This document shows positions 17,959 through 46,302 of a stretch of 46,302 nucleotides of DNA, one piece after another (within the stretch, counting starts at the first letter, position 1; each line of letters begins with the position of its first letter). The position numbers and the translations under genes were made by a program. This stretch comes from a virus (lineage: Duplodnaviria; Caudoviricetes), in the IMG/VR virus record IMGVR_UViG_3300031473_000131, positions 1-46,302 of that record; one strand, written 5' to 3'. The notes beneath the pieces were generated by a model that was not told the origin of the DNA, searched no databases, and saw nothing but the letters and a program-made list of their open reading frames with translations.

Positions 17959-17960
17959 AC

Positions 17961-19318: not shown

Positions 19319-19410
19319 ATACGGCTAGTGTAGGCATCTGGGCGTGTGATTTTATACAATAATCAGGTATATTACTTTGCAAACGTAGTCTGAAACAAAG
19401 GAAAGAAACG

Positions 19411-20322
19411 ATGACGCTTACTTCTCATCTCAAACTAAAGAACAGTCCGGTACGGATATTTCTCCATGACCGTTTTCCAAATACCAAAATTATCATCAAC
19501 GAGATCCGTGCGGTAGGCAATGCTGCGACCACGATTCGGCCAGAAACGAAAGTCCCTTGGTCATTACTCGGAACGGCAATTGACTTTCGCATTTGCGGTT
19601 ACTTTGCGCCAATTACCTTTCATGGTTTTCCGCCTCTTCAAGAAGTCTGGGGGGATGAAGATTTTATGGTGTTTTTTATGGAGACGATCCAACAAATAGA
19701 AAGCCGGGCGGCAGAGTTGTATTCCGCTGGTCCATCTTTAAAGCGTATTGATGAAGAGTCGCTTTGTCGGTTTTGCGTTGTTCTGGCTATGTTTGACCAT
19801 GAATTTCGATCTGGAATGATGCCTCTAGAGGTGTCACTTCTTAACCCAAAATTTACGACAACTGAAGAGTTTCTCTCAGTAATTCCTCAAGAGTGGGTTG
19901 ATGACCTCTATCAGATGTCTTTAGTATTTCGAAATACGTCTGTTGATTTATTGAGCCGTCCTGTCGTGCTTAACCCCCATTTTGAAGGTAGCATTGATGT
20001 AGGTGGGGCCGATGCGGACTTGATCATTGACAGCTGTCTGCTAGAAATAAAGGCGGCAATCAGTTTCAAGGTAAGCAGGCCAGAGTGGATTTATCAATTA
20101 CTTGGTTATTCTTTTTTGGACTATAGCAATAGTTACACTATAAACACCGTTGGATTCTATCTTGCTCGACAGGGCGTTTATATTCGGTGGAGTCTAGAAG
20201 AAATTATGGAGAAATTGGCAGGAAAAGAGGTTCCACCTTTAGCAGAATTGAGATTAGAATTTAAAAGCGTCATTAGCGGAGCAGGACTGGGAGTGGATAG
20301 AAGCATACTTTACAGATATTAG
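19411..20322 (+). CDS. Putative PD-(D/E)XK nuclease (moron)
   Basis: LGTAIDFRI; GADADLIIDSCLLEIKA; YQLLGY; AT-rich, antisense to late operon. Confidence 0.7.
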   Translation: MTLTSHLKLKNSPVRIFLHDRFPNTKIIINEIRAVGNAATTIRPETKVPWSLLGTAIDFRICGYFAPITFHGFPPLQEVWGDEDFMVFFMETIQQIESRAAELYSAGPSLKRIDEESLCRFCVVLAMFDHEFRSGMMPLEVSLLNPKFTTTEEFLSVIPQEWVDDLYQMSLVFRNTSVDLLSRPVVLNPHFEGSIDVGGADADLIIDSCLLEIKAAISFKVSRPEWIYQLLGYSFLDYSNSYTINTVGFYLARQGVYIRWSLEEIMEKLAGKEVPPLAELRLEFKSVISGAGLGVDRSILYRY

Positions 20323-20379
20323 TAGATATATGCTGAGACGGAATATTTCTTAATCCGTAAGCCTCTGAGCCTATGCCAA

Positions 20380-23300: not shown

Positions 23301-23901
23301 GTGCAAGTGCGCTACTGACGGCAGTCGAAATGGGCTTGTTGGCATCAGTTGTGTTATCGGCGTTCGCCAAACCCACCTGACCCTTGGTCACTGCATGGGG
23401 ATTATCAGTTCGTGCAGCGTGCGTGACAGACGCAGCCACACTGGTGTTGGCGGTTACAGCGGTTTGAAAGTCAGAGATGGTTGCGGCGGTCTGCGTCCCA
23501 CTATGGTTTGCACGCTGCGTGGCATCCATATTGGGCACGTTAGCAAGGCCAACTTGCGTCTTGGTTACGTTATGCGGGTTGGAGGTATTGCCGGTATGGG
23601 TGGCCAGAGCTGTGGTATCCGCCTTGGTCGCAAGGGCAGATTGGGTAGCACTGGATACGGGTTTCGCAGTATCTGCGGTATTGTCGACCGCGCCTAGCCC
23701 CACCTGTGTCTTGGTGACCGCGTGAGGATTGGCAATGTCTGAAGTATGGGACGTGAGGGCCTGTTGGGTCGCCAGCCCATCAAGCAAGGCGGCTTTCGTC
23801 GCTCGCTTGGTCGTTGGTGTGGTGGCCGTGACGATGATGACCGAGTCGTTAGCGGCAACTGATGAAGCTATCGGAAGCAGTGAGCCTACCTTAGTTGCCA
23901 T
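20380..23901 (-). CDS. Large virion fibre/depolymerase: repeats, pectin-lyase-like beta-helix, LamG-like domain
   Basis: Three NPHxVTKxQVGL repeats; YNVKAYGAVGD; FKGVLDVVRMWNRQLT. Confidence 0.75.
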   Translation of the reverse strand: MATKVGSLLPIASSVAANDSVIIVTATTPTTKRATKAALLDGLATQQALTSHTSDIANPHAVTKTQVGLGAVDNTADTAKPVSSATQSALATKADTTALATHTGNTSNPHNVTKTQVGLANVPNMDATQRANHSGTQTAATISDFQTAVTANTSVAASVTHAARTDNPHAVTKGQVGLANADNTTDANKPISTAVSSALALKANDNTVVHLSGTETVTGTKTFNAGTLLDKGTQVYNVKAYGAVGDARKVMDGVMTASSGLLSSATATFISGDVGKQIIVTGAGTSSGVLTTTIASYQSATQVTLTVIASTSVSGASVAFGTDDLAAMTACLAAIRSAGGGRMLLMQSHITSARLYYDRKNLSVDGWPNFGTTMYCGFDPSGGVNGMFTFYSDDSTTIGNISVRDVVFDHMGCRIPGVYIRGNTSTANLSRNFYLERLESVNRAGSADGVLAGIVIYGKYTGVLGSLKNVHITDYYSHDNTGAVGTRPYSINILSEDLDGLWVDGRFENLYGTTIAMAGGTSNLRGRKNFNFNLRCFQTKKRIAGDGTYADAFDSNRTGFHGIDITGTFDDNNLFARTVDNFHIAIYESIGFVVHDAKFYNSRAVIAPGYSTPPGHENYAWTFNNNLVMDAITFADSDGQIAGMCSNNIFVRVQSGPIIFGYGLQTAQKTSHGNVFYNCITDPDTSTEWAQAIFLAELGGQDYDGNIIYDDLGAASKLKYVFAELHTSGDVTHPNTYRNNKMMGGANLVKTFYLDSEIKHEIIGNSDVKEQVIQNSVTHNSPIVSPLATTDVVSNNWRADGSRVTDNSPLPVISGGTGGSTAAAARSALGVVSRTGDYMSGQLILGQGYALQLAGSSGSYLDAGNNGAIMRGAVAEPFTIACRLQLDPTYSSASGSYPLMSVGRYYLNITSGMKIRGGIWGGANPTSTTTLVAGGTYDIIFDWDGANTSISVNGIVENSIVSTSSASGTNNLYLGKRNGEAGTEFKGVLDVVRMWNRQLTSSEKATVTAGGTAPASGLVLELGFDLQSPVDTSPTGNPSSNTGTSYIAGIAAPVGDGFSSLFSLGAIRANGPIATALVSKTTTYTITATDSVILANATSAAFQATLPTAVGISGRQYTIKRINAGANNVTVGCSASQTIDGAATKTLGAAFSYIVIVSDGVNWQIVGQGGTVS

Positions 23902-24052
23902 TACCCTCCAGACCGATGTAAAAACCGTCTTCTGTCATCAAGTAATAGTGGTCCTCCGTTAAGAGGCGACCAGGCAGTGGCTTAAATACCGGTGGTCGCG
24001 GTGTAAGCAGAGGCGCTCGGGGTGTGAAAAGGGGAGTTGACTCAGTAGCCAT
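23891..24052 (-). CDS. 53-aa protein with LLTED/LMTEDG motif (not in ORF track)
   Basis: MATESTPLFTP...RLLTEDHYYLMTEDGFYIGLEGNGN; overlaps fibre start. Confidence 0.6.
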   Translation of the reverse strand: MATESTPLFTPRAPLLTPRPPVFKPLPGRLLTEDHYYLMTEDGFYIGLEGNGN

Positions 24053-24161
24053 ATACCGACAGCATAGCGATGCGGGGGGTCAGGGTTATATGTTCACCTC
24101 AGTCTGGTATAGTGTGAACGGACAGTGAACACACCTTTTTCGGAGAGGGTATCGACTAGGT

Positions 24162-24707
24162 ATGTCGTCGTCACGCTCTGAGGCTGAAGAACATCTGCTT
24201 ACGGTTCTCGGGATGGTTAACGAGTGGCTACGCTTCGCTGAAGCAAAAAACGCAGGACTGATTGCCCTCGGAAGTCTGTCACTGACCGGGCTCCTCACCT
24301 ATGCCGCTGGCTTGAATTTGCCCCCGAAAGGTGCTGTTGCGGCGTTGGTCGTCGGATGTGCGCTTTGGTTGGGTAGTATATGCCTTGCCACCTATAGCTT
24401 CATGCCTCAGACCAACGCTGTGAACAGTAAGCTGCCTCTCAAGAATCTAGTCGACGAATCCGACAATCTCTTTTACTTCGGGCATTTGGCTAACTTCAGC
24501 AGTCAAGCGCTTCTCACCGCGCTAGGATCGAATCAAAATGGCGACAACGCCAGGGGCAGATTTGAAAATGATCTGGCGGGTCAAGTAATCATCAACAGTC
24601 GAATCACTGTTTCAAAGCTCGACTTATTCGACAGCGCCACTCGCTGGTGGCTAGCTGGACTGTTAGTCGTTTCAGCAGGAGTGCTGTGGACACTACTCGG
24701 AGGGTGA
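24162..24707 (+). CDS. pycTM: Pycsar-type transmembrane effector (PycTM-like)
   Basis: NEWLRFAEAKN, NLFYFGHLA, DLAGQVIINSRITVSK; 3 TM; adjacent to cyclase. Confidence 0.8.
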   Translation: MSSSRSEAEEHLLTVLGMVNEWLRFAEAKNAGLIALGSLSLTGLLTYAAGLNLPPKGAVAALVVGCALWLGSICLATYSFMPQTNAVNSKLPLKNLVDESDNLFYFGHLANFSSQALLTALGSNQNGDNARGRFENDLAGQVIINSRITVSKLDLFDSATRWWLAGLLVVSAGVLWTLLGG

Positions 24708-24714
24708 GACGCAA

Positions 24715-25656
24715 ATGAATTTGGAAGAATTTCGAGACAGTCTCCTGGAAGAAATACGTGGAGTTGGCGGTCCATTATTTGAACACGTCATTACAAAAAC
24801 AAATCTGGTGCCATCAATTGATGACCAGAATATTACGTATCCCAACTTAATCGAGAAAATGCAAAAGAGTAAGCTTCTTGAATCTGCTGTCCTTTTTGTT
24901 GACTTACGTAACTCAACCGCCATCAGCTTGAACCATAACCAGCAGACGTTAGCTGCACTTTACTCAACCTATGTACGTTCCATGACTAGGGCCGCGCATT
25001 ATTTCAACGGACATGTGAGGAACATCATAGGAGATCGCGTGATGGTTGTCTTTGACCGTGAAAATTGTTACCGGAAGGCCGTAAATACGGCCATGCTGAT
25101 GAATAGCGTCGCTAATTATATGCTAAATAAAGAAACCTCTGCTGTTCAGGTAAAAGTAGGAATTGGAATAGACTTTGGAGAGATGTTGATTACAAAAACA
25201 GGGATTATTAAGAGAGGTTCAGAAAACACGTCTAACAAATCACTGGTATGGCTAGGTAAGCCGGCAAATGTGGCTTCTAAGCTTACTGATATGGCCAACA
25301 AGCAGCGAAATGCGCCTGAAAGGATGGTTGAAGAGGGGGATTACTACCCGGCTCTTGAAGAATGGGGCTGGTATAGATACTCAGTGGATGAGTTTCTGAG
25401 TAGAATTGAAGCGATCGGTGGAAAAATAAGGCATAGGGAGCAGTACTTTGAGACGTTCATCAAAGTGATGTCGAACCCTCCTGTCAATCCGCCTATCTTG
25501 ATGACCAAATATTTTCATGACGGACTTACAAAAGAGCATTCGGAACTCAAATGTGTCAAAGACGAGTTCTGGAAGGCTCAGGACCTTTCTCTTCCCAGAG
25601 TAACTGGGAAGATTTATGGAGGTAGCGGTTACTTCGAGTCGGTGGCCAAGTACTAG
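24715..25656 (+). CDS. pycC: Class III nucleotide cyclase (Pycsar PycC-like)
   Basis: LFVDLRNST, IGDRVMVVF, VGIGIDFG, VWLGKPANVASKL. Confidence 0.85.
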   Translation: MNLEEFRDSLLEEIRGVGGPLFEHVITKTNLVPSIDDQNITYPNLIEKMQKSKLLESAVLFVDLRNSTAISLNHNQQTLAALYSTYVRSMTRAAHYFNGHVRNIIGDRVMVVFDRENCYRKAVNTAMLMNSVANYMLNKETSAVQVKVGIGIDFGEMLITKTGIIKRGSENTSNKSLVWLGKPANVASKLTDMANKQRNAPERMVEEGDYYPALEEWGWYRYSVDEFLSRIEAIGGKIRHREQYFETFIKVMSNPPVNPPILMTKYFHDGLTKEHSELKCVKDEFWKAQDLSLPRVTGKIYGGSGYFESVAKY

Positions 25657-26001
25657 TTATTTCTTAACCGGCACCTTCCCCACCATCTTATTCTCAGGTG
25701 CAGTCACGTCCTTTTCCTCTTCCGATACCACTTCCCGATGAGCCTCAACGTCTGACTCACCCACCGATACTGGTTCAAGCTCTGAAGGGTCTTGCGGATC
25801 ACGCTCTTTGGCCGCCTGATTATCCCCATATACGCTCTTGTCATAGACCGGAAAGTCATTTTCTGCGTCACCGAGCACTACCAACGAGCTGCCTAAGCGA
25901 TCAGCTTCAACCTGGGAAATGACATGCTCCTCGCCGTGGCCGAACACACGGGCTCCCAACAGGGTTGTTTCATTGAATCGAACTTGTACCATCTTAGACA
26001 T
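25657..26001 (-). CDS. Hypothetical protein after capsid gene
   Basis: AGGAGG SD; APENKMV tail typical of post-capsid small genes. Confidence 0.65.
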   Translation of the reverse strand: MSKMVQVRFNETTLLGARVFGHGEEHVISQVEADRLGSSLVVLGDAENDFPVYDKSVYGDNQAAKERDPQDPSELEPVSVGESDVEAHREVVSEEEKDVTAPENKMVGKVPVKK

Positions 26002-26043
26002 AACTGTCCTCCTAAATATTATTGTGTAATTCGTCGCTCAACA

Positions 26044-26064
26044 CTGGCCGGAGTGACCGGCCAG
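26044..26064 (-). terminator. Hairpin after major capsid gene
   Basis: CTGGCCGG-AGTGA-CCGGCCAG; no U-tract, may stabilise mRNA instead. Confidence 0.4.
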
Positions 26065-26080
26065 AGGTTGAAGGACCAAT

Positions 26081-27238
26081 TTAGCTAGCTGCGGTTTTCA
26101 CAACAGCAAACGCTTTGTCGCCTTCGGCCAATTGAATGTCGATGTTCTCGATGATTCGGACAGCGGACATGTCCTGTTGCCACAGATTGATGGTGGTTGT
26201 GCCATCAGTATCCTTGATTGTGGCCTCGCGGCTGATATCGAAGGAGTATTCCTTTTTGTCAGCAAACAGCATGTAGCTCAAATCACCCACCGCCATGAAC
26301 TTGGTACTGAGTTGTGTTCCATCAGTGGTTCGTGGCAATACCCGGACAAACTGAACGGGAATGTTCCAAATTGTGTTTGGACGTCCCTCAGTAGGGTCTT
26401 GGATCAGGTATCGGCCAGTCGTGTCCTTGATCTTGCGCAAAGCATTGAAGACCGAGAAGGACATGTACCACTTGGCGTTAGCAGCGGCATCGTCATCCAG
26501 CAAGGCCAGCGCAGCCAACATGTCGTCAAGGGTTATCTTGGTGTAGGTTGTCATGGTTGACGGCAAGGTCAACACAGGCACGTTGGCGTTCTGGAAGATT
26601 CCCTCGCCAGAGGCTAGTCCCTGGAAGCCCCAGGTGTCTTCGGCCTTGGCGAATGCCTCGGCGTAGAGCATGGTCAGGATATTGACGGTGTCAACATTGG
26701 CCCGGCGCAATAACTCATTGGACATCGGCGTGATACCTGCCATTTTCTTGACGGAGATCACGGTCTGGCCAGTCGTTGGCTGCACAGCCGGGATCGCACC
26801 CTTTTCAGAGACACGGTTCACGGACACTGAGCCAATCGTTGGTAAGCGGACAGTATCGCCCTCGGTCGGAACCCCGTACGAGCGGGCATCACGGCGAACT
26901 ACACCAAAGGTTGGAGCAATTCGGATGATCTCGCTGGAGAAGGTCTCCGGAACGAAGAATCCACCATCGGTGTCAGTACCGGTTGAGAGGGACTTCATCT
27001 GGGTTTCGTCGTGCGCCATGGCTGCCTGGATGAACTCAGCGGACTTTTCCAAGCCCTCCTTTGCATCTTTGGTAGCATCGCGCACATCTTCCCCAAATAA
27101 TTCCTTTCGACGATTCGGCAGGTCTGCTTTCATTTGCTCGAATACATCTTTGGTGATGGCGGGCATCAAGGTTTCGGTCAGGTCTTTTTTTACGCCGTCC
27201 TTAATATCGGTAACGATTTGTTCTAATTCTTTTTCCAT
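26081..27238 (-). CDS. Major capsid protein, HK97 fold
   Basis: DGGFFVPE, LRKIKDTTGRYL, GDLS. Confidence 0.95.
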   Translation of the reverse strand: MEKELEQIVTDIKDGVKKDLTETLMPAITKDVFEQMKADLPNRRKELFGEDVRDATKDAKEGLEKSAEFIQAAMAHDETQMKSLSTGTDTDGGFFVPETFSSEIIRIAPTFGVVRRDARSYGVPTEGDTVRLPTIGSVSVNRVSEKGAIPAVQPTTGQTVISVKKMAGITPMSNELLRRANVDTVNILTMLYAEAFAKAEDTWGFQGLASGEGIFQNANVPVLTLPSTMTTYTKITLDDMLAALALLDDDAAANAKWYMSFSVFNALRKIKDTTGRYLIQDPTEGRPNTIWNIPVQFVRVLPRTTDGTQLSTKFMAVGDLSYMLFADKKEYSFDISREATIKDTDGTTTINLWQQDMSAVRIIENIDIQLAEGDKAFAVVKTAAS

Positions 27239-28065
27239 TATTTATTCACCTCCTTCGTTGAAGGTTGTAATAGGTTTTTCATCGCAGTCATTTGGGCCAG
27301 CAGTGCCGTGTCCTTGGCGTGGATGTGGGTCTGGATATCGGTCAGGAAGCTTTTGAGCTGTTCCTGCCTAACTTCAGCCTCGGAGCCGGTCTTGATGGCC
27401 TCGACCGCTTCAATCAGCCCCTTCTTTAATTCCTCGGTCACCGGGATCTCAAAGGATTTGGACTCGTCGAAGGTGACCGTCGCCGTCGCGAAGTCGTCGG
27501 CAAACTTGAAGTCGGTTAGGGCTTTCACCTCTGTCTCGGTCACAACCACGGCCACGGAGGTATCAGACTCCAGCTTGGCAATCGTTTCCTCTGATACGCC
27601 TAGATTCTTCATCATGGTCAGGGCAAAGGGGTTGGCCGGGATATTGACAGCCGAGAATTCAAACAGCTCCCAGTCAAAAATCTTGAAGCCGCCCTCCGCA
27701 GTCTTCGAGGCAGTCTTGAGGTTGGGCAGGAAGCCGATTGACCAGGCACGCATGATGCCTTCTTCGTAGAGGTTGTAGACCTCATCGGCGAATTGACTCT
27801 TGCCCTCAGTTGGGAACTTGACCTTGGCGTGGATACCGGCGTCATCAACATACAGCTCAGGAGCCGTGGCAATAGCCGGGCGGTCAGAGGCGTTGTGGCC
27901 AAATAGGACCACGGGATTTTTCAAATAATTGTCGAGCTTGGCCCCGGTCGGCACCATGATGTCGCCGTAGCGGTCAACATCGGGGGTGGAGATGGTCACA
28001 AGCAACGAGCGTTCGTCTTTGAGGGCTTTGACGTCAGAATTAAAGGTCTTGCGGATGAGTTCCAT
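27238..28065 (-). CDS. Prohead protease, HK97 family
   Basis: VDRYGD, NPVVLFGH, WSIGF, ELFEFSAVNIPANPFA. Confidence 0.93.
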   Translation of the reverse strand: MELIRKTFNSDVKALKDERSLLVTISTPDVDRYGDIMVPTGAKLDNYLKNPVVLFGHNASDRPAIATAPELYVDDAGIHAKVKFPTEGKSQFADEVYNLYEEGIMRAWSIGFLPNLKTASKTAEGGFKIFDWELFEFSAVNIPANPFALTMMKNLGVSEETIAKLESDTSVAVVVTETEVKALTDFKFADDFATATVTFDESKSFEIPVTEELKKGLIEAVEAIKTGSEAEVRQEQLKSFLTDIQTHIHAKDTALLAQMTAMKNLLQPSTKEVNK

Positions 28066-28104
28066 ACTTGCAGTCTACGAATGTAGATCCTCCTGTTTAG
28101 ATAG

Positions 28105-30132
28105 TTATTCCTGTGTAGCGGATTTCCGCCATTCGAGCTCACATTTGCAATTCGGATGAGCGGTCGGAGCCAAGTCCCCTGAGGGGAAGGCATCCTCCCG
28201 GTGTATCCAGCCCACAGCCGCGTTCATTGAACACACCTCAGCCGTTTCTCCGTTACTGGTCACCCAGCGCTTCTCTTCCAAGTTCATCTGTCGAGCGGAT
28301 TCAATGCTGCCCTGAGCGTAGGTGGTCAACACCTCAGTCCGGGCAATGCGTAAGGCTCGCCACTGACTCTCATCATCAAAGAACTTACCGAGATCGGCGG
28401 CGATGTCCTTGACCGACTTGCCATCAGTCACCCCTTGGGACAGGATCGAGGTCATTTCGGCTTTCAGATTATCTGCAACCTGCGTGGCGCTCTTGAGGCC
28501 ATGATCGGTCAACCAGGATGTCACCCTGTGATTTGTGGCGTCGAAGGTGGCGTCGGCACTTACTTTGGCGGCGGTCTGGGTGGCGGCATGAGCGAATACT
28601 GGCGGTAGCACCTTGCTCATTACGCCTTGAAAGGCCACGGTCACGAACGGCCAGAGTTCAAACAACAGCCGATACAGGTCGGTTTCCTGTACGTCGGACG
28701 AATTGGGATTGTTGTCCTTGAACGACTTCTTGCCCTTGAGCTTCTTGGCCGCGTCCCGAGCCACCACGCGATAGACCCGCTCATATTGCTCGGAGGCGTC
28801 ATTGACGGTGTTAGAGATATAGGCGGAGCGCTCATCTATAGAAGAGTAGGCAGCCTTGAAGTCCTTCTTGGGCTTTGGTGCATTGGTAGGTGGTGGGGGC
28901 GCACCAGCGGGAGGAGCCACAACGACAGGTTCTGGCGGCTTGATAGCAGTCGTGAGTGGCACGTAGTTGTTGGGTACCAATAGCACGTCACCGCCCTCGA
29001 TATCCTCTTGTCCGTCCATCTTTCGAACTTCATTGCGGGTCAACCAGCCGGATTGCAGGGCAATTTGCTTGACCTTGGCTTGCAGTTCGACATTCTGGGG
29101 CACAGGATCAGTGGCTACGATGCGGTACTCGGACGATTTCAATCCCCACAGTGTCAGGTAGAACTCCGTCAGACGGGTCGCAATGAAGCGCATCCGAGGG
29201 GCCACGACCCGCTTGGCAAAGACATATTCAGAGGCTTCGGCATTGGCCCGGTTCACGTCTTCGGTGATACCAAGGATGGATTTTGGGGTATGGAAGATAG
29301 CCAGGATCTCGTCACGAACCAGTCGCTTGCCTTCATTGAAGTCCATCTCCTGCGCAGTACTGGACACCTTGCTGACCTTGAGGCCACCTTCGAGCACGGC
29401 GGGCAGATGACTCTTGCCGACTCCCTGGAACTTTTCCAGCCACTTCTGTTCGATGCGCTCGTACTGCTCATCATTTAATGTCTGCTCAGTCTCCAGTGAA
29501 ATGCCGGGCACGGCAGAATTGAAGAAGAAGTCACGATTGTATTTGGAAGCGTAGGTGTCTATGTCTATGGGCACGGCAGCCGGTTTGACCAACCCCGTAC
29601 CCCGCAGCATGTCCTCGGGGTTGAAGTCATGGAAGTTGATCACTTCCCACGGCTTGAGCTGAATTGCCTTGCCTTGTTCGTTGCGGTACTCATAGCCTGC
29701 CACACCGTCGGGACCACCCCGCAGAATGGTCATACGGGTGGGGTCCATCAGCCACAGTTCAGTGGGTTGGGACTTAATACGTTGGGAGCCATTGGAATAG
29801 GCGACGTACCAGAACGCGCTGCCACACAGATCGACAAAGGCCGAGGTGCCATAAAACAAGTCGTCCGAGGTCATGGTCGGGTTGACCTGATTCAGCAAGT
29901 CCATGGCCGGGTGCGTGTCTACATCCGTCCAGTCAGAGCCGGTATTCTTTTGCAGTTTGAGTTCGATAGTGGAAACGTCGGTCGCAATCGCCCGGATACA
30001 GGCGTTTACCCAGGGGAGAGCATAGGCCTGGAGCAGATTCTTGGTTGCAAGACTGGGAGCGTTCCGGGGCATGTAGAACGCGAACATGGATTGATTGCGG
30101 GATTTGGTGAAGAGGTTGGAGAAGAAGCCCAT
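28105..30132 (-). CDS. HK97-family portal fused to Mu gpF/SPP1 gp7-like domain
   Basis: VLEGGL, NRANAE, LTRNEVR; Pro-rich linker; RIARTE...PTAHPNCKC. Confidence 0.92.
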   Translation of the reverse strand: MGFFSNLFTKSRNQSMFAFYMPRNAPSLATKNLLQAYALPWVNACIRAIATDVSTIELKLQKNTGSDWTDVDTHPAMDLLNQVNPTMTSDDLFYGTSAFVDLCGSAFWYVAYSNGSQRIKSQPTELWLMDPTRMTILRGGPDGVAGYEYRNEQGKAIQLKPWEVINFHDFNPEDMLRGTGLVKPAAVPIDIDTYASKYNRDFFFNSAVPGISLETEQTLNDEQYERIEQKWLEKFQGVGKSHLPAVLEGGLKVSKVSSTAQEMDFNEGKRLVRDEILAIFHTPKSILGITEDVNRANAEASEYVFAKRVVAPRMRFIATRLTEFYLTLWGLKSSEYRIVATDPVPQNVELQAKVKQIALQSGWLTRNEVRKMDGQEDIEGGDVLLVPNNYVPLTTAIKPPEPVVVAPPAGAPPPPTNAPKPKKDFKAAYSSIDERSAYISNTVNDASEQYERVYRVVARDAAKKLKGKKSFKDNNPNSSDVQETDLYRLLFELWPFVTVAFQGVMSKVLPPVFAHAATQTAAKVSADATFDATNHRVTSWLTDHGLKSATQVADNLKAEMTSILSQGVTDGKSVKDIAADLGKFFDDESQWRALRIARTEVLTTYAQGSIESARQMNLEEKRWVTSNGETAEVCSMNAAVGWIHREDAFPSGDLAPTAHPNCKCELEWRKSATQE

Positions 30133-30174
30133 ATACCCATTAGGATAGGGTTACGGAGGGACGTTTTTATACAG

Positions 30175-31524
30175 TTAACGGATATTGGGAATTGGGGTCG
30201 GGTCTAACTCGAAAAACATGCGCATCATCAACGCGTCCCCAAAGTCCGGTGATTTGCCATAGTGCTCCTTGACTTCCTCCTTGGTCAGCACTCGCAGCTT
30301 GGAGTCTTTGTCGGTGTTCTTGGCCTTCATCTGCTCAAGGTCGGCAATGATTGCCTCCCGTATCACCGAGTCGTCATGGGCAACCAGCAAGCGATGATTC
30401 CGTACGTAGTCAGCCAACGTATAGTAGCACTGGGCTTTCAGGTTGGCATAGTTGACTTTGAAGGTGTGCTTGGCTTGAATGGGGTCTTGCATGGCCGATG
30501 AACCATTAACAAACCCCTTGCACCGAAGGTGATCGACAGCATTGCCTCCCACGCCGTCCTCATCGAGCAGGACATGGCTCATCGGTATGCCGTGCTTGGC
30601 CCGTAATCCTTCTACCGCTTCCTCCACCTGCGGACCACTGGATTTATCCATGCTGTGAATCTCGGTAGCAACTAGACCCTCCCATACCACCATAACTGTC
30701 TTATCCCGCCCAAAGCGAGCCACGTCGCAGGTCAGGTAGCGATTCGTGCCCGGCTCCACGGGGTTTGAGAACAGATCGGTCAGGTCGTCTCGGGCGAAAA
30801 GGGTGTACGGATCGTCGTCATATTCCCAGTTGCCGAATAGCAGACGTTCTTTCATGGCTCGGTCGGTCAGGCTTCGCAGGGACTCAATGTAATGAGGTGA
30901 GACATGCGGATTGTCGGTGACGAGTGCCTGGACGAAGGCTCGACCCTTGGGAAGGGTCTTGTTCTTTGCCGGTTGATAAAACTCGGAGTAGACCCAGTTC
31001 TTGGCCGGATTGCATGAGCTGACCAGCTTGGGAATGAGATCGAAGTCTGCCAACCTGAAACGCAGTCGGGAACGTACCACCTCTTTGGCCCGATGGGACA
31101 CCTGATTGGCTTCATCGATGGCCGCGCCGGTGTATTCGGTTGAACCAAGGGAGTCGAAGTTGGGATCAGACGGGTAGGTGGCCAGATCCTTGAGGTAGAT
31201 GGTCGAGCCGTTGAAGAAGGTGATGATGTTGTCCTGCTGATTGAAGCGATAATGCTCGCCTGCCTTCATCCCCCAATCGGTTAGGACTTCAAACAGGGTC
31301 AGGAGCGTCGATTCCTTAAGCGATTTGAGGACAGCTCGTCCCAGAAGCCAGCGAGAACCCGGATAGCGAAGGCAATTCTTTGATTCCCATTCACAGATCA
31401 GACGACTCTTGCCTCCACCAGCACCGCCTCCGAAGAGTAGCTCAGTGGTGACATCGTCTTCGAGGTAACACCAGGCTTCGTCCTGCTTGGGTGTCGGATG
31501 GATGTTTATCGTCAGGGTGGACAT
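30175..31524 (-). CDS. terL: Terminase large subunit
   Basis: FGGGAGGGKS Walker A, AIDEA Walker B, DVARFGRD, SPDFGDA. Confidence 0.95.
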   Translation of the reverse strand: MSTLTINIHPTPKQDEAWCYLEDDVTTELLFGGGAGGGKSRLICEWESKNCLRYPGSRWLLGRAVLKSLKESTLLTLFEVLTDWGMKAGEHYRFNQQDNIITFFNGSTIYLKDLATYPSDPNFDSLGSTEYTGAAIDEANQVSHRAKEVVRSRLRFRLADFDLIPKLVSSCNPAKNWVYSEFYQPAKNKTLPKGRAFVQALVTDNPHVSPHYIESLRSLTDRAMKERLLFGNWEYDDDPYTLFARDDLTDLFSNPVEPGTNRYLTCDVARFGRDKTVMVVWEGLVATEIHSMDKSSGPQVEEAVEGLRAKHGIPMSHVLLDEDGVGGNAVDHLRCKGFVNGSSAMQDPIQAKHTFKVNYANLKAQCYYTLADYVRNHRLLVAHDDSVIREAIIADLEQMKAKNTDKDSKLRVLTKEEVKEHYGKSPDFGDALMMRMFFELDPTPIPNIR

Positions 31525-31852
31525 GATTGATGGTGACTGAGGTGACGCCTGTTTGATCGATTTCCTGCTTGGGTGGCTTGAAGTCTTCGGGGTAGAGGTT
31601 GGCAAAGAGGTTGTCGATTTTCACCTTACGCTGATTCACCTTGGCAAATTTGGCTTGCGCTCTGAGCATGTCTATCCGAAAATTCTCGTCAGCAGCTTCC
31701 CAGTCGCGGATAGTTTGAATGTCTCGACCGACGAAGTTGGCAGCGGCCGTTTTCATGCCGGTCGTTTCAAAGAATGACAATACTTGCTCTTTCATCTGAG
31801 CAATATCGTCATCTCGGCTCATATCGGGGTTAGCTCGCTTTTTACCTGGCAT
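31442..31852 (-). CDS. terS: Putative terminase small subunit
   Basis: HTH-like AAANFVGRDIQTIRDW directly upstream of terL. Confidence 0.7.
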   Translation of the reverse strand: MPGKKRANPDMSRDDDIAQMKEQVLSFFETTGMKTAAANFVGRDIQTIRDWEAADENFRIDMLRAQAKFAKVNQRKVKIDNLFANLYPEDFKPPKQEIDQTGVTSVTINHVHPDDKHPSDTQAGRSLVLPRRRCHH

Positions 31853-35562: not shown

Positions 35563-35961
35563 TCAAGCAGAGGTGGCAGGTGTTTCCCCGACAAATTCCC
35601 GCACAGTGAATACTTTGCTGCTTTTCATCACCCCGTCGCCGTTGACGTAAGTCTTGAGTCTCTCTAACCCTTTGACGGTAACGTTGTCGCCTCTCTGCAA
35701 CTCCTGCGCCTGTTCGGCCACTTCGCCCCACGCTTCGAGACTCAACCATGTCGTAAACTTCCCCTCTTGAATTCCCAGTCCTGCGGTAAACAGCTTGCGG
35801 CCCTTGACGACTTTCATCTCAGGTCGTCCCACGATACCGGTCAGTTTGGTTTCATCGACCGACTCCGCTTTGACTTGGGGCAGTGGTTCGTCAAGCTCGT
35901 CGATTGCGCCGCGAAGCTCCACCAGTAGGGTCTTAATCCGTTCAAGCGTTGTAGCTTCCAT
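35563..35961 (-). CDS. ssb: Single-stranded DNA-binding protein (OB fold)
   Basis: LTGIVGRPE, TTWLSLEAWGEVAE, RGDNVTVKG. Confidence 0.8.
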   Translation of the reverse strand: MEATTLERIKTLLVELRGAIDELDEPLPQVKAESVDETKLTGIVGRPEMKVVKGRKLFTAGLGIQEGKFTTWLSLEAWGEVAEQAQELQRGDNVTVKGLERLKTYVNGDGVMKSSKVFTVREFVGETPATSA

Positions 35962-36370: not shown

Positions 36371-37195
36371 TTACGCTGCCTGCGCTTCTTCCTCGATATG
36401 CAGCAGGTCGGCAATGTTACGCACGGCCAAGTGAATCCGTGTCAGGCTGTCGTGAAAGTCCTCAACACAGCCACCGTAATGCAGGATGTAATCCTGGCTA
36501 AACGGATTGTTCAGACCGTATAGGCGAGCCAGCAGGTAGGCTCCTGCCTCCGCTTCCAGCTCTCGTTGCGCTTTGGTCGTGTTCTCGCGCTTGTCGCCTT
36601 TGTGCATGACCTCATGGACGTACTCGTGCAAGAGACACAGGAACTTTTCGCCGGCAGAGATGGCCGGACTAATGATGATCCGTCCGCCTGTACTCATGCC
36701 GTGGATACCTGTGGGCAGTGGTTCCTCGTCCACCATAATGCCGGTCGAGCCAATGGACGCGCGGGCGTTGTAGTAGAGCGTGTCGTAATCACCGTCCAGT
36801 GCATAGCGGACTTTGGGCAGATCGACTTGCTCCACCAGTTGCGACACGTCAAACACGCAAAGCGCGATATACCCAACCAACCGTTGTGTCAGCTCTCCGG
36901 TCACGTCATCAACGAGTCTCTTGAGAATTGGCCCTCTCACCCAGATAGCTTTCTCGCCCTCTCGCACGTGGTAGCCCATCTTCTCCCAGGCCTTGTAGCC
37001 CGCACAATGGGTGGCGTCGGGTCGTTGAATCAGTATCAGCATGGCATTTGCCAGACTGTACTTATGGAACCTCGAATAAAATTCAAGCAGTTCCAAGAAC
37101 CGCTCCGTGTGTCCGGCGTTGATGGCATGCTCCAAATCCTGTGTTGCCGTCGCCACCGTTTCCTCTAGCCATTCGCCGCGTTCTGACCTATTCAC
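36371..37195 (-). CDS. ardC: ArdC-like antirestriction protein (ssDNA-binding plus zincin domain)
   Basis: FHKYSLANAMLI.IQRPDAT..AGYKAW, GEKAI, VFDVSQ, HEYVH, ELEAE. Confidence 0.85.
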   Translation of the reverse strand: MNRSERGEWLEETVATATQDLEHAINAGHTERFLELLEFYSRFHKYSLANAMLILIQRPDATHCAGYKAWEKMGYHVREGEKAIWVRGPILKRLVDDVTGELTQRLVGYIALCVFDVSQLVEQVDLPKVRYALDGDYDTLYYNARASIGSTGIMVDEEPLPTGIHGMSTGGRIIISPAISAGEKFLCLLHEYVHEVMHKGDKRENTTKAQRELEAEAGAYLLARLYGLNNPFSQDYILHYGGCVEDFHDSLTRIHLAVRNIADLLHIEEEAQAA

Positions 37196-37271
37196 CGTTG
37201 CTCTCCTTACTGAGCTTTGCAACGTAGACGGTTCTACGTTCCTTCAGGTCAGCAAGGGCGGCTAGTGTCTA

Positions 37272-40135: not shown

Positions 40136-40173
40136 ATGTTTACATTATATAGTTAACATAAAACTATGTCAAG
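40136..40173 (-). promoter_or_regulatory. Consensus sigma70 early promoter with operator, near copy of 5592-5629
   Basis: TTGACA-17-TATAAT; CTTGACATAGTTTTATGTTAACTATATAATGTAAACAT. Confidence 0.85.
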
Positions 40174-40386: not shown

Positions 40387-40525
40387 GCTCCTACACCGGC
40401 TGCCTGCCGGAAGTTAGTGACTTTTTACCAGTGAGCGGGTCAAGAGGGGGGAAGGACTTTGTCCGGCCCTCTTGAGGCGGTCACGCATGATAAGTCATGT
40501 TCCGGCAGGCAGCCGGTGTAGGAGC
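40387..40525. repeat. 26-bp perfect inverted repeat closing a structured 87-nt spacer
   Basis: GCTCCTACACCGGCTGCCTGCCGGAA (40387-40412) and complement (40500-40525). Confidence 0.9.
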
Positions 40526-40689: not shown

Positions 40690-41634
40690 TCAATCAAAGC
40701 TGAGTGACTGGTAGCCGTCCATGGTTGGGACGAACCAGACAGAGTCCAGCGCGGTGTAATCAGGTGGCTCTATGAAGGCAAAAGCCGTGAACCAATAGGC
40801 CTTGCGTCCGCCCGATTTTAGGGTTGCTTCCTTGAGGTGTTGTGCCCTCTTTGCGCCGGTGGTGATGACCAACACTTGTGGGCGTTGAAGACCCGAAAAG
40901 AGTGGATCGTTGACGAACCGATGGCGGAAGTAATCGCCGTACTTGGCAATTTTTCTATCGAAAGATGAGAAGGCTGCTCCGCGCACGACTTCAGTTCCTG
41001 CGTCCACTTCAATCAGGTAGGTCTTGAGCAACGAGCCGAATTTGACCACCAGCAAAGCGTCAGGTTGAATGTCCTTGAGGTGCGTTTGGCCGTCCATAAT
41101 CTGCCGCTTCAACTGCTTGTCGTTTAAGACCAGGACGGTTTCGCCACCGGCCTGGCGGAAGGATCCAATCAGATTTGCCAGGACGTTGTTGAGCTTCAAG
41201 GCATGGTCGTAGGTCAAGGGGGCGGAGGTTCGTAATCCTGACGTCCAATTGGGGTGGAAATCGTCACGCTTATGGTGTTTGAGGAGTTCGACGCCGTGGC
41301 GAGTCAGCAGGTTCAGCTCGTGGCGGATCAACTTCTGGGGAGTTGGGTACTCCGCGATAGGGACCACCTCCACCAGACCGAGATCCTTTAATCGGCGAAG
41401 GCACATCTCGTTGGCCGCGTTGCAGGCGGTTGACAGTTGGCGGGGCTGGTTCTTGGTGTTCGGCTCCATCCAGAAATACATCTTCGCCACCATCAATGAG
41501 GTCAAGAAGTCGAGTTGGTCCAGGCGTTCCAGTACCTCCCATCCGTGCTGAATCAGGCTCATCGGATAGGTCTTGTGGGGCGTCGTGAAGTGGATTCGGC
41601 CTTGTCGCTTTGGTTTGACGTGTGGGTTTTCCAT
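40690..41634 (-). CDS. Replication-relaxation (Replic_Relax/MOB_C-related) protein
   Basis: Winged-helix-like N-terminus, DHALKLN, IQPDALL...YLIEVDAGTE...KIAKY, PQVLVIT. Confidence 0.8.
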   Translation of the reverse strand: MENPHVKPKRQGRIHFTTPHKTYPMSLIQHGWEVLERLDQLDFLTSLMVAKMYFWMEPNTKNQPRQLSTACNAANEMCLRRLKDLGLVEVVPIAEYPTPQKLIRHELNLLTRHGVELLKHHKRDDFHPNWTSGLRTSAPLTYDHALKLNNVLANLIGSFRQAGGETVLVLNDKQLKRQIMDGQTHLKDIQPDALLVVKFGSLLKTYLIEVDAGTEVVRGAAFSSFDRKIAKYGDYFRHRFVNDPLFSGLQRPQVLVITTGAKRAQHLKEATLKSGGRKAYWFTAFAFIEPPDYTALDSVWFVPTMDGYQSLSFD

Positions 41635-42958
41635 TGTTTTCCATTGTGCCACCTTGCCGCCAGGCTTCATAGCGCTCCCTGAGACTGGGAATGTCGGATT
41701 TGGGCAAGGTGTACCGAATAGCCTGGGACTGCGCTTCGACCAATTGCGTCAGGTTGGCCGTCGAGTTCCACGGTGGCATCATCAGTCGTTGGGTGGGAGT
41801 GTTTGCCAGACCTTTATACGTCCAGTCGGCCTCATGCTCACCAAATGACTCTTGACGCTCTCTAAACCGCTCATAGGCAACTGAGGTAGTAGGAGCGTCA
41901 CCTTCGCTTTGTCGGAACGCCAGACGGCTCACGTGACCAAGAGCTACCGGAATATCTGAGTCTTTGTCTAATTGTTGGAGTTGACCGTAATCCTGATGAG
42001 CAAATACTGGGAAAATATTAAAGGCGTTCCCGTTACGGATGATGCGAGCAAACGGGGCGGGGGCCAGCTCGTGGGCTTCATCCACTATCAGTCGCCAGCG
42101 GCGCTCACGGCTCCAGTCGGAGAGTCGGCTTTCTCTCCGTGCGTAGAGATTTGTCAGGTGGGAGGTCATCAGGTTACCAATACGTCTGCCATCTTCGTTA
42201 CTTAAGCCCTCGGCTAGATTGACTACTACTAGCTTTCCTTGATCGAGCCAGTCGCCTAAGTGAATGGTAGAGGTGGGGGAAGCGATTGTCAGACTAACAT
42301 CTTCCGATGTGAGAAAATCCCATAACCGTCCAAGTGTCGAGTCTACTTGGACGCGTTGGTCGCGCTGAGACCAGTCATCAAAATAATCCCAGAACCATTG
42401 CAGGTCAGGTCGGCGAGACTTGGCACGTAGTTGATTTCGGAAACCTGCGTCGAGAAAGACCAACACCACATCGCGCAGTGTAAGTTGGGGCAGTGCGTAA
42501 ACCAGTTGTGCTCCGGCGTAAAGGTACTTGCCTACTAAGGTCATGACTGCGGCGTCGTAGCGACCAATATGGGCGAATAGCGTTACGACATTCGACGCGG
42601 TAATGTTGGTGAGTTTTTTGGCATATCGGCTGTTGCGGTCTATCTCCATTATATTAAAGGCGATAGTGCGGTCTTGGTCAGCGCCCGGACTGAGGTAGAT
42701 GAGCTTGTCTGGATGGGAGGTTTTAAGCGCCACGTCCTGTGCCAAGTCACCCTTTGGGTCAAGCAAGACGACGCCCTCTCCGGCATTAATACAGGCGTCG
42801 GCAAATCTCCCAAGAAAGGTGGATTTACCGGATTTTGGGCTGCCAATTACATGTAGCGCATCAAGGTCAGACAAGTTAACCAATACCTTGCGCTTGATGA
42901 TTGAACCTTTGGGGGCACGGGAGGTCCCGACGACGAAACTAGGCGTTTTTGTCGTCAT
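41270..42958 (-). CDS. Type IV coupling protein-like ATPase (TraD/TrwB/HerA superfamily)
   Basis: HVIGSPKSGKST, LLDPKGDL, LIVDEAH, FAHQ. Confidence 0.85.
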   Translation of the reverse strand: MTTKTPSFVVGTSRAPKGSIIKRKVLVNLSDLDALHVIGSPKSGKSTFLGRFADACINAGEGVVLLDPKGDLAQDVALKTSHPDKLIYLSPGADQDRTIAFNIMEIDRNSRYAKKLTNITASNVVTLFAHIGRYDAAVMTLVGKYLYAGAQLVYALPQLTLRDVVLVFLDAGFRNQLRAKSRRPDLQWFWDYFDDWSQRDQRVQVDSTLGRLWDFLTSEDVSLTIASPTSTIHLGDWLDQGKLVVVNLAEGLSNEDGRRIGNLMTSHLTNLYARRESRLSDWSRERRWRLIVDEAHELAPAPFARIIRNGNAFNIFPVFAHQDYGQLQQLDKDSDIPVALGHVSRLAFRQSEGDAPTTSVAYERFRERQESFGEHEADWTYKGLANTPTQRLMMPPWNSTANLTQLVEAQSQAIRYTLPKSDIPSLRERYEAWRQGGTMENNGKPTRQTKATRPNPLHDAPQDLSDEPDSARMGGTGTPGPTRLLDLIDGGEDVFLDGAEHQEPAPPTVNRLQRGQRDVPSPIKGSRSGGGGPYRGVPNSPEVDPPRAEPADSPRRRTPQTP

Positions 42959-43865
42959 CGAACAAGCCCATGTTGCGAAGCATCATCCGTTCGACAGCTT
43001 CAACAACCTTTTTCTCGTCCATCTGAGCTGACGGGTCAATTCGCCTCACTTCGTTGTAGACGTGATTGAACCGTTCGACCAGCTCTTGTCCTAATAGATG
43101 ATCACGCAGCTCGGTCTTGACCAGCACTGTGGTTTGCAGCGCCAGACCCATCATATTGAGCAGGTTCACCCAACGCTCATGCAACAACGACCGCTCCTGC
43201 TTCTGCGCCTCAGCTACAACGCGCGGAGTTTCCTCTTTGATTCTAAGCTTTGTTTGACGTGCGGTGACCCTTAAATTTTCCTCGTTTTGTAGACGCACGA
43301 TTTCCATTCGCTGCTTTTCGAGCTCCATGCTTTGAATCTGTAGTTTGTAGTCCTGCTCGATAGCTCTAGCATCATGTACTTCATTCTGGAGTTTCATCAC
43401 TTCGATTTGTTGAATCTGGGCCTGATAATCACGTTCCCGTACTCCCTGGGCTCGTATGGCCTCAACTTTGTTCACAAGTTCAGCCTCGGCCACAGTAGAA
43501 ACAATCGGTACATCCCCCAAACTGTACATCATACTATCCCGAAAACTACCCTCAAAAAATAGCTTCCCCAGCCTCGTCAGCTCATGCTTAGACATTACTC
43601 CAGTGTCCGGGTTATCATCGGCGTATTTAGATGACCTATTTTTTAAGTAAGAGTCGTCGTACCCATCGACTTTAGCTATCCAGGCTTGTACCTTGAGTAA
43701 TTCCCCACTTCCGAGAATTAGAACAAGCTCGCGCAAATACTTTGACCCGCGCCTTACAAGTTCGTTTTCTTGTTTTGCTCGGTCTCGAATTCCGCTGTCT
43801 GACCTATACAGCCAGACTGCTGCAATTATCGTCACCAACCAAACGATAAACCAGAACCAGGCCAT
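42939..43865 (-). CDS. Membrane-anchored coiled-coil protein
   Basis: N-terminal TM MAWFWFIVWLVTIIAAVWL; long Q/E-rich coil. Confidence 0.7.
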   Translation of the reverse strand: MAWFWFIVWLVTIIAAVWLYRSDSGIRDRAKQENELVRRGSKYLRELVLILGSGELLKVQAWIAKVDGYDDSYLKNRSSKYADDNPDTGVMSKHELTRLGKLFFEGSFRDSMMYSLGDVPIVSTVAEAELVNKVEAIRAQGVRERDYQAQIQQIEVMKLQNEVHDARAIEQDYKLQIQSMELEKQRMEIVRLQNEENLRVTARQTKLRIKEETPRVVAEAQKQERSLLHERWVNLLNMMGLALQTTVLVKTELRDHLLGQELVERFNHVYNEVRRIDPSAQMDEKKVVEAVERMMLRNMGLFDDDKNA

Positions 43866-44330
43866 GAGGTCACTCCCCTAATAAAGTTGGCATGATTGGG
43901 ACCCGGCTCGATACGCGGCTGTTCTCTGTAGTACTCCTGTAACCGCAGCATAGCGTTCGCCGTCGTGTTACGCAAGCAGATGGCGAAGTCGAAGGGGCAA
44001 ACGACGTAAACTGTCTTTAGGCCGCCCCCATTCGACCGACCCAAAATCATACGCACCCGGCTTCGTCGCGCCCAGCTAGCGCCATTCCTCCCCACAAGAA
44101 TGAACGGACGACTGGTGACGGCGGTACTGTTTCCCGTCCGATGAGCCACCCCGGAAGTAAACAGCCGGGTACACAGGACCTACTCGTGCGTTCAGGTTGG
44201 ATTGGATGGGGCGGCAACTGGAAGTATGATTGTGCTTGGATAGCAGGTGCGAAACCCTCAGACGACTGGATGGGTACGAGTCAACTTCTGGCGACAGACC
44301 ATTACGTATGGGCTTGGTCAGAAAGGCGAC

Positions 44331-44609
44331 ATGTCTATTTTTCAATCGACTCTCCAGCGTCTCATTGCCCAAAGCGGAAAGAGCCTGTCGGAAATTGCTG
44401 AACTGGCGGATGTGGATCGAAGCTATCTGATGAGGTTGGCTCGCGGTGATAAGGACAATCCATCACCGGAAACCCTCGTCAAGATTTGGATCGGCATCTG
44501 TATGGACAGCCGACTGGCAAAAGCCGACCCGACATTCGTTCATGGTCTGGCTGAAATGATGCTTGCGGCAGGATTGTCACGGTACGCGACTGCAAAACGA
44601 TCGGAGTAG
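44331..44609 (+). CDS. XRE-family HTH regulator (candidate repressor)
   Basis: KSLSEIAELADVDRSYLMRLARGDKDNPSPETL. Confidence 0.85.
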   Translation: MSIFQSTLQRLIAQSGKSLSEIAELADVDRSYLMRLARGDKDNPSPETLVKIWIGICMDSRLAKADPTFVHGLAEMMLAAGLSRYATAKRSE

Positions 44610-44664: not shown

Positions 44665-45141
44665 TTAATCGAACGGAATGTTCAAGACTGCGAACTGGCC
44701 TCTGAGTTGAATTGTAAACTGATCATAAACATACATTGCCTCATGTTCGTCATCAAACCTGCCAATATGGATGATTGAATCATACATGCGTAACTGTGCG
44801 CTCCACATAGAGCGAGATGTATCCCAAAACACGCCTATCCGCCCCTTACGCTCCATGCCAAACCTGCGGCGGTTCCATTGGTTCTGGGACTTGGTACACA
44901 GACGAAGGTTGCTTCTGGTTGCATTCAGGACGTCGCCGTCTTTATGGTCCACTAAGAGACCTGATGGAGGCGATACCAACTCATTGTGAAGAAATATGTG
45001 TGTGTTGGGTCCATTTCTGCGTGCAGGGTAACCACCTTTTTTGGCATGCCACTTGAAATGAGCAGCCCAAACATAGTCATCATCGTCAAGTAAAACGTAT
45101 TTCCCCTTGCCATTCTTTCCCGACAGTGCGATTCTCTGCAT
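44665..45141 (-). CDS. HNH-AP2 endonuclease
   Basis: VDHKDGDVLNATRSNLRLCTKSQNQWN; GVFWD...WSAQL...HIGRFDDEHEA..YD. Confidence 0.9.
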   Translation of the reverse strand: MQRIALSGKNGKGKYVLLDDDDYVWAAHFKWHAKKGGYPARRNGPNTHIFLHNELVSPPSGLLVDHKDGDVLNATRSNLRLCTKSQNQWNRRRFGMERKGRIGVFWDTSRSMWSAQLRMYDSIIHIGRFDDEHEAMYVYDQFTIQLRGQFAVLNIPFD

Positions 45142-45333: not shown

Positions 45334-46302
45334 CTATGCGATCGATTTTCCGGAATACCGCTGACGGCGTTTATGAAGTGGTGGTGGAGTCTCGGACTTT
45401 CGTATCAGGGTATCGAAGGGACTGCCTGCTTCGTGGGCTTCCTGCAAGTCCTCATCGGCCATGGAGAGATACCGCTTGGTCGTGTTGTAATCCTCGTGTC
45501 CCAAGAGCAACCGGACGTATTCCATGTTCTTTGTCTCGCGGAGCATCATGGTGGCGAACTGATGACGAAGCAAATGAGGATGAAAATTCTCCAAGCCCGC
45601 GTCTTCCTTGATCCGTCTGAAGGCCGAACGGATACCCCCAGGATCCAGATGGAAGAGTGGTTCGGCGTCAATGCCCCGAATCGCCATGAACTCTCGCAGA
45701 TATTCCCTCACCTGGGGGGAGAAGAATACCCGCCGCTCCTTGTTGCCCTTTCCAATAACCGTTACCACCCGCTTCTCCATCGACACATTATCGAGTCTGA
45801 GAGATGCGACTTCGGCTCGCCGAAGTCCGGTATCGAGCATCAACGCCACCATCGCACGATTGCGAATGGCAAGGCCACTGGTTCCCGACAGAAACTTGCT
45901 TCGCCACATGCGCTGCATTTCTTCATCGTTGAGAATCTTGAACAGCCGCTTGGGGACTTTCGGCATGGGGAAGAACACTTCCTTGGCCAGTAGTTCGCCT
46001 TTATACAGCCAGCGGGTGAAGGCTCGCATGTCACAGAGGTGGGCATGAATCCCTGACTCGTCGCGCTGGGTCGAGCCCTTCTGCTCGTTGACCGGCGTCA
46101 CTCGCAGCCAGGTCGCGAACTGCTCCATCATGGCGGTGGTCAGCACCGACGCAGACGGCGCGATGCCTTCGGCCTGCAAAAACCGATTGAAGATCAGAAA
46201 GGAATATTTGTAGCGATCCTTCGTGCCCTTGGCACGACCGACAGCTATCTGATGGCTCTGAAATCGACCAGTCAAATCCGCTAACGAGTTTGAAGTGTCC
46301 AC
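45334..46302 (-). CDS. Tyrosine recombinase/integrase (XerD-like, no arm-binding domain visible); start at window edge
   Basis: TGLRRAE, GKGNKER, HPHLLRHQFA, LLGHE, KRY. Confidence 0.92.
   Translation of the reverse strand: MDTSNSLADLTGRFQSHQIAVGRAKGTKDRYKYSFLIFNRFLQAEGIAPSASVLTTAMMEQFATWLRVTPVNEQKGSTQRDESGIHAHLCDMRAFTRWLYKGELLAKEVFFPMPKVPKRLFKILNDEEMQRMWRSKFLSGTSGLAIRNRAMVALMLDTGLRRAEVASLRLDNVSMEKRVVTVIGKGNKERRVFFSPQVREYLREFMAIRGIDAEPLFHLDPGGIRSAFRRIKEDAGLENFHPHLLRHQFATMMLRETKNMEYVRLLLGHEDYNTTKRYLSMADEDLQEAHEAGSPFDTLIRKSETPPPLHKRRQRYSGKSIA

Follow-up and report, generated by a model that had tools for sequence, protein, structure and literature searches.

The co-occurrence of a relaxase and a VirD4-like ATPase in tailed phages has been known since 2012 from phages of Bacillus. 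In phage 0305phi8-36, a “DNA translocation operon” (orf200-207) encodes a MobC-related relaxase, a VirD4-like ATPase that has no membrane segment (orf201), and separate membrane proteins, with homologs of the operon in SPO1, GBSV1, and Gamma/Wbeta/Cherry/Fah; its deletion left growth unimpaired, and the authors left open why this relaxase class is linked to phages (Pathria et al. 2012, PMC3357382). Integrative and mobilizable elements (IMEs) that carry VirD4 and MobC, the latter equivalent to the Pfam family PF13814 (Replic_Relax), form class 8 of Coluzzi et al. 2017 (PMC5357655). Here, we analyze a 46,302-nt stretch of Caudoviricetes DNA (IMG/VR record IMGVR_UViG_3300031473_000131, positions 1 to 46,302; hereafter the window), in which a three-gene module for a Replic_Relax (MOB_C-class) relaxase, a VirD4/TrwB-like ATPase, and a membrane protein shares one integrated element with a siphovirus virion operon. 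The hybrid is real, but the combination is less surprising than a first-pass annotation had assumed, the pairing of relaxase and ATPase having already been described in the Bacillus phages. What is new here is that the likely host belongs to another phylum, that the IME backbone can be traced, and that one member has no recognizable replication genes.

The window resembles the 0305phi8-36-type operons in that a tailed phage carries a relaxase directly after an anchor-less ATPase, with a separate membrane protein and no mating channel; in temperate members, that operon adjoins recombination genes. The window ATPase matches orf201 and its equivalents in CP-51, JL (gp150), and Shanette, and the gene beside the match in these phages is a PF13814 member, including JL gp149, with orf200 below the cut-off. 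The window differs from these operons in its low identity to them (22-25%), the lack of an actin-like gene, its likely Chloroflexota host, a full IME backbone that also exists in virion-less form, and the absence of any recognizable replication gene. Replic_Relax also occurs in further Bacillus phages (PMC9658697, PMC7685451, PMC11526630). The temperate Bacillus siphoviruses Novomoskovsk, Bolokhovo, and RBClin15 (PMC9658697, PMC11526630) place a translocase-like ATPase, annotated as FtsK/SpoIIIE family, beside Replic_Relax, the genes being read as plasmid maintenance; unlike the window, Novomoskovsk and Bolokhovo encode a helicase, a primase, and a polymerase. The VirD4 and MobC IMEs, along with CloDF13 MobB/MobC and pAD1 TraX, share with the window the set of integrase, coupling-type ATPase, and MOB_C-class relaxase and the lack of mating-pair genes, whereas the window has a tyrosine rather than a serine integrase, an attachment (att) site in the 5' half of tRNA-Arg, and a whole virion operon, and its mobilization is only predicted. 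Prophages on integrative and conjugative elements (ICEs) or conjugative megaplasmids (Huang et al. 2023 as cited in PMC12282955; Hodors, bioRxiv 10.64898/2026.02.21.707213) are similar in that prophage DNA is spread by conjugation, but they ride on the machinery of another element, whereas the window encodes its own relaxase and coupling-type ATPase. A search of the literature outside subscription papers and bioRxiv supplements gave neither an earlier account from Chloroflexota nor one of a hybrid between prophage and IME.

Element boundaries and module genes

The window forms the beginning of a contig of 273,670 bp (locus L073, identical over 15,030 shared bases and extending 6,656 bases further). 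A 38-bp direct repeat (38/38 identical, E-value 5e-15) occurs at 2364-2401, on the minus strand, where it constitutes the first 38 bases of a tRNA-Arg(TCG) gene (2326-2401), and again at contig positions 46524-46561, 222-259 bases past the window end and directly upstream of the integrase gene. This tyrosine integrase (45334..46302 in the window, minus strand, with an open reading frame [ORF] reaching contig position 46347) shows 38-50% identity to integrases of related elements; the window ends inside its ORF, and the element continues beyond. Since the att pair brackets both the virion genes and the module, with the ORFs as first annotated, they belong to one 44.2-kb unit. In sequencing run X1, possibly the source sample, an unbranched contig of 44,182 bp starts at position 2372, inside one att copy; its first 9,629 bases were compared, and its length places the far end inside the second copy. 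A loose end at 2401 was considered as a sign of excision and rejected, as it represents sequence flanking the other att copy. Runs with partial word shares proved to be low-depth copies of the entire stretch. Depth over the element equals that of the left flank in all three well-covered runs (X1, 20.3; X2, 14.3; X7, ~9.6), and amplification is therefore not indicated; assembled contigs cannot reveal attP. One gene in the host flank has a 76% identical counterpart in a Thermomicrobiales genome (five genomes compared), which makes a Thermomicrobiales (Chloroflexota) bacterium the likely host; the window sequence occurs only in rock metagenomes.

The three module ORFs are intact and all on the minus strand. 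The relaxase (326 aa, 40690..41670) matches PF13814 above its cut-off (E-value 7e-9, 36.4 bits against 25.3), one of the profiles that the first-pass annotation had proposed to search; the ATPase has no Pfam match of its own. The structural model of the relaxase, with a predicted local distance difference test (pLDDT) score of 84, is read as a winged helix followed by a restriction-enzyme-like PD-(D/E)xK domain, and its best PDB match is FokI at a low template modeling score. Residues H156, P203, D204, E221, D223, Y244, and R275 are invariant in all 27 aligned relaxases, including four canonical PF13814 proteins; the acidic triad is D204, E221, and D223, its third residue being D where the cited motif is DEE (PMC6736028). 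Among viral proteins, the top matches of the model are proteins of phage JL and phage G and a 283-aa entry that matches orf200 in length. A tblastn search with the relaxase against 50,697 phage records gave no match, which reflects sensitivity, because the fold search did find phage homologs.

Walker A and B motifs are present in the ATPase (562 aa, 41270..42958), and PF10412/PF12696 domains occur in its distant homologs. When a profile built from 10 homologs was searched against PDB, TrwB was the sole match, and a weak one (E-value 0.002), and 7 of the 12 plasmid matches of the ATPase are annotated as type IV coupling-type proteins; a fold model with pLDDT 42 was too poor and was not used. 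Its assignment to the VirD4/TrwB-like family is weak but consistent. The last 400 bases of the ATPase gene overlap the relaxase gene in another frame, as they do in all four relatives in which both ORFs are resolved. A fused ATPase-relaxase or a frameshift artifact at 41.6 kb was rejected, given that the homologs are equal in length and the overlap recurs. In one relative, G165a (G165:C9, L182:12678-14969), the ATPase and Replic_Relax appear as a single in-frame 763-aa ORF, which is either a true fusion or an assembly frameshift.

No N-terminal membrane anchor was found in the ATPase; the product of the upstream gene (308 aa, 42939..43865) has one N-terminal hydrophobic segment and a coiled-coil-like body, and is a predicted anchor for the ATPase. 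Neither a protein search nor the Atlas gave a homolog of this membrane protein, which is weakly similar (E-value 4e-4) to the syntenic gene of a related prophage described below. Searches of IMG/VR with the relaxase, the ATPase, the integrase, or the gene related to gp34 of phage Pam3 gave no close relatives.

Relatives in Thermomicrobiales

A relaxase profile search matched 7 of 192 Thermomicrobiales genomes, and the flanks were examined in six of them (the unpublished G175 counts only in this tally and in that of Replic_Relax below, and G033 likewise enters as a tally only). One genome, G004, holds a second prophage (G004:C2) with the order integrase, helix-turn-helix (HTH) gene, membrane gene, ATPase, relaxase, small ORFs, ArdC, terminase, head, tail, lysis, and a convergent early block, flanked by two copies, 85.7 kb apart, of a 44-bp sequence from the 5' half of tRNA-Arg(TCT). 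No other genome among the 192 has relatives of the window TerL or gp34-like gene, and in G004 both lie inside this sister prophage. To check related phages for the module had been suggested in the first-pass annotation. The relaxases and ATPases of the two prophages are 31-32% identical, and all three module genes are open in both. A virion-less, att-bounded element of 29 kb in the same genome (G004:C1, with a 46-bp att in the 3' half of tRNA-Arg) as well as G165:C9 and G106:C13 carry integrase, ATPase, relaxase, and ArdC with different cargo; G158 and G009 have relaxase and ArdC, and G177 is too short to judge. No virion genes were seen in these siblings by tblastn and reading of gene calls. 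Because the sister shares layout and att type, and the virion-less siblings share the integrase-ATPase-relaxase-ArdC backbone, we are confident that the phage/IME hybrid proposed from the window sequence is a real and recurring structure.

In the relaxase tree (which leaves out G165a, the frameshifted G106a, G158, and G175), the four phage-type loci form one clade (support 95/88) separate from the virion-less siblings, and in the ATPase tree G165a, G004:C1, and G177 fall together (100/99), with no resolution among the remaining sequences. With several long branches, neither tree gives the direction of capture. Two of the loci compared, on the short metagenome contigs L074 and L075, have the relaxase followed by a promoter and small ORFs of phage-like appearance that match nothing; the gene order of the window was rejected for L075, where integrase and HTH gene are oriented away from the module and a tRNA-Arg 3'-half fragment lies in between. 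A sample of 401 Chloroflexota genomes gave matches only in G004 and one distant genome. Among 413 TerL relatives, the best 80 share almost nothing further with the window, and the module is in none of the flanks examined.

Both virion-bearing members (window 2364-2401; G004:C2 609663/695350) duplicate the 5' half of tRNA-Arg and keep the intact tRNA at the integrase-distal end, and the virion-less G004:C1 instead duplicates the 3' half. The sister also has a portal/Mu-F fusion with an intein-like domain that scores below the cut-off (L160:2791-5700) and four phage tRNAs (L159:6194-6592). A second Thermomicrobiales IME family (L005, L020, L031, L044) combines the ATPase and Replic_Relax with a serine recombinase, often beside tRNA-Val or tRNA-Arg, with an MT-A70 methylase confirmed in L005.

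Mobilization, replication, and other proposed roles of the module

The element has an integrase, a relaxase, and a coupling-type ATPase and, as first annotated, no mating-pair formation genes among the proteins scanned, which is the composition of an IME. No Par or Rep matches were found in the window and the element lies integrated between att repeats, which sets it apart from phage-plasmids. We favor, at a probability of about 0.5, the reading that this is a temperate siphovirus in tRNA-Arg whose integration arm matches a mobilizable element, and whose module mobilizes the excised circle through a helper ICE. The integrase would excise the element at the 38-bp repeats; the MOB_C-class protein would nick a cis site, probably the palindrome described next; the ATPase, anchored by the upstream membrane protein, would pass the DNA to the channel of the helper; and in the recipient ArdC and the single-strand DNA binding protein (SSB) would protect the single strand, with the integrase re-inserting the element.

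The candidate origin of transfer (oriT) or nic site is an imperfect palindrome of 139 bp that follows the relaxase (40387..40525), with perfect 26-bp arms and a z-score of -11.5; the longest arm in 20 shuffles was 13 bp. L074 and L075 have hairpins of comparable span at the same position but of unrelated sequence (z-scores -5.1 and -6.4). The nic site of pAD1 lies within a large inverted repeat. As for helpers, Replic_Relax occurs in 35 of the 192 Thermomicrobiales genomes, and one genome of the order, G051, has an ICE-like cluster of SLT/NlpC-P60, PrgI, a VirB4-like ATPase, a primase, VirD4, Replic_Relax, and a serine recombinase; the order therefore appears to have conjugation systems that use this class of relaxase, with helpers being rare.

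Several observations weigh against this mobilization reading. Mating-pair markers are scarce (VirB4-like PF19044 in 4, PrgI in 3, and PF12846 in 0 of the 192 genomes), although these counts are lower bounds from incomplete genomes, and the genome search missed a PF12846 match that the protein scan found, so that helpers are undercounted. No helper genes were found in G004. A palindrome of such quality is present in 3 of 12 loci and in none of the other nine, which include the sister and the virion-less siblings. The match of the ATPase to coupling-protein models is weak, with TIGR03743 far below its cut-off. Excision, nicking, and transfer of the element are all predictions from sequence.

In a Chloroflexota genome, the locus L035:9935-20378 has a VirD4-like ATPase and Replic_Relax followed directly by the Tad/Flp pilus genes RcpC, T2SSE, and two T2SSF, a possible Tad-based transfer system. 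Similar matches are found at L023, L025, L032, L038, L042, L043, L052, L063, and L068; the annotation covered L035 alone.

The first-pass annotation had also offered the module as the replicon of the element. Under this alternative, which we regard as unlikely, the module acts as the replicon, alone or beside another role: the relaxase would nick the palindrome and drive rolling-circle replication with host helicase and polymerase, an arrangement that would have made an initiator-DnaB cassette dispensable in this copy. In a PHROGs scan of 127 of the 353 six-frame ORFs of the window (those of at least 55 aa from non-structural regions), none matched a helicase, primase, polymerase, or initiator, just as first annotated, and no conventional replication gene emerged among the hypotheticals. 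Two controls from the sister were positive (initiator, E-value 5e-44; DnaB, 1e-62), and a third, an AEP-like protein, was missed, so that highly divergent genes could escape; the only replication-related match among the scanned ORFs, and a weak one, was SSB. The lack of any further replication gene alongside an intact virion operon and intact catalytic residues speaks for the replicon, as do the presence of SSB, the PHROGs label “replication initiation by nicking” for the relaxase family, and the precedent of ICEBs1, whose unrelated MobT relaxase serves both replication and transfer (PMC5357655). However, the sister keeps the module alongside an initiator and DnaB, deletion of the 0305phi8-36 operon had no effect on growth, no covalent intermediate was detected with CloDF13 MobC (PMC6736028), and the equal depth of element and flank noted above does not point to replication.

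The sister also suggests a different account of the missing genes. Its initiator and DnaB lie directly upstream of a promoter and the gp34-like gene that both phages have in common, and at the syntenic site of this 2.6-kb cassette in the window (5172..5591), as in the rest of it, no initiator or DnaB gene or remnant was found; the window also lacks an AEP-like gene, which both the sister and G165 have after ArdC. The window copy has thus probably lost its replication cassette, and would in consequence be replication-defective or helper-dependent. Lytic replication in the lineage likely uses initiator and DnaB, and because the sister has the module in addition to both, the module is probably not the normal replicon of the lineage. 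Two further points count against our reading here: the loss is deduced from one relative, and the virion genes are unbroken where a long-dead phage might show breaks.

It is also unlikely, though nearly on a par with the replicon, that the three module proteins move DNA with no classical mating channel involved, either from cell to cell or by segregating the excised circle, a possibility raised speculatively by Pathria et al. for the Bacillus phages. Replic_Relax is about ten times commoner than detectable mating-pair genes in the order, the pair adjoins actin-like genes in lytic Bacillus phages, and the link of this relaxase class to phages was left unexplained in that paper, as noted. On the other hand, no channel-forming gene was recognized in the element, G051 has the same relaxase class among mating-pair genes, and helpers are undercounted. 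We consider it improbable that the module is a relic, of no use to the phage, of the IME from which the integrase came: in the laboratory, the single phage examined in this respect could do without the operon (PMC3357382), and the membrane gene lacks homologs detectable by protein search, but three genes have stayed open in both prophages despite the low identity of their relaxases and ATPases, with invariant catalytic residues. Least credible is a chimeric contig or a tandem of an IME and an integrase-less phage, for which the clear module boundary at ~40.18 kb (the palindrome, then a phage-type promoter) would speak, since one att pair encloses both parts, the contig is unbranched, no att site or coverage break was found at 40.2-40.6 kb, the matches listed for four low-depth runs include neither a joint nor a loose end at 40.1-40.7 kb, the IME genes ArdC and SSB are interleaved with phage genes, and the layout recurs in an independent genome.

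Other genes of the window and implications

The virion operon (7978..31852, minus strand, with plus-strand inserts) has packaging, head, tail, and lysis genes without breaks: TerL, portal, protease, HK97-type capsid, TerS, adaptor, tail tube, tape measure, Dit, M23 peptidase, and lysis genes. The IME backbone is represented by ArdC-N/IrrE (36371..37222, minus), with phage-like early genes between it and the relaxase, and is accompanied by SSB (35563..35961, minus), homologs of which follow ArdC in G165:C9 and G158:C10. On the integrase side lie an HNH-AP2 endonuclease (44665..45141, minus) and an XRE-type HTH regulator (44247..44609, plus) divergent from the module, whose homologs hold the same place in G004:C1, G165:C9, and G177 and also lie beside the L075 integrase. 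The convergent early block (5820..7902, plus), with the gp34-like gene and small ORFs, is common to the sister. A consensus sigma-70 promoter (40136..40173, minus, 12/12) stands at the start of the phage-like early genes, and a 38-bp block at 5592-5629 is 87% identical to it in opposite orientation, so that the pair faces inward from both arms; these are probably shared operator sites of a repressor. A Pycsar-like pair, PycTM effector and PycC cyclase (24162-25656, plus), lies between capsid and tail-fiber genes, and the sister has a CBASS-like set (CD-NTase, HORMA, AAA ATPase, and TIR-SAVED; L161:3048-6702) in the same head-tail interval, suggesting a defense hotspot. Other opposite-strand inserts are a PD-(D/E)xK-like gene (19411-20322, plus) and a gene whose product joins a DNA methylase with an Mrr-like domain (33384-35009, plus).

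A second element (272-2325), not enclosed by the att pair, lies downstream of the 3' end of the tRNA gene and encodes an HTH repressor and a tyrosine integrase interrupted by an in-frame TAG at 1139-1141, flanked by short repeats (802-828 and 2093-2183); variant copies are present in the runs. A remnant of the phage SLT-like gene (window 3991-4161) in the host flank (L073:3361-3531, contig ~49.4-49.6 kb; 79-86% identical) hints at an earlier related prophage.

The operon known from Bacillus phages is tied here to a source, a tRNA-Arg IME family with members that have and lack virion genes, in one bacterial order and beside ICE-like elements of the same relaxase class. A bolder idea, which we find doubtful, is that this Chloroflexota siphovirus lineage was built on a mobilizable element and that in the window the MOB_C relaxase replaced initiator and helicase, one nicking enzyme serving both replication and conjugative exit of a fully active phage. 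As initiator and DnaB occur in only one of them, the two prophages offer a natural comparison for telling apart mobilization, replication, and a combination of both as the function of the module, with the practical limit that the hosts seen are metagenome assemblies. If mobilization is true, lysogeny could spread without infection in low-water habitats.

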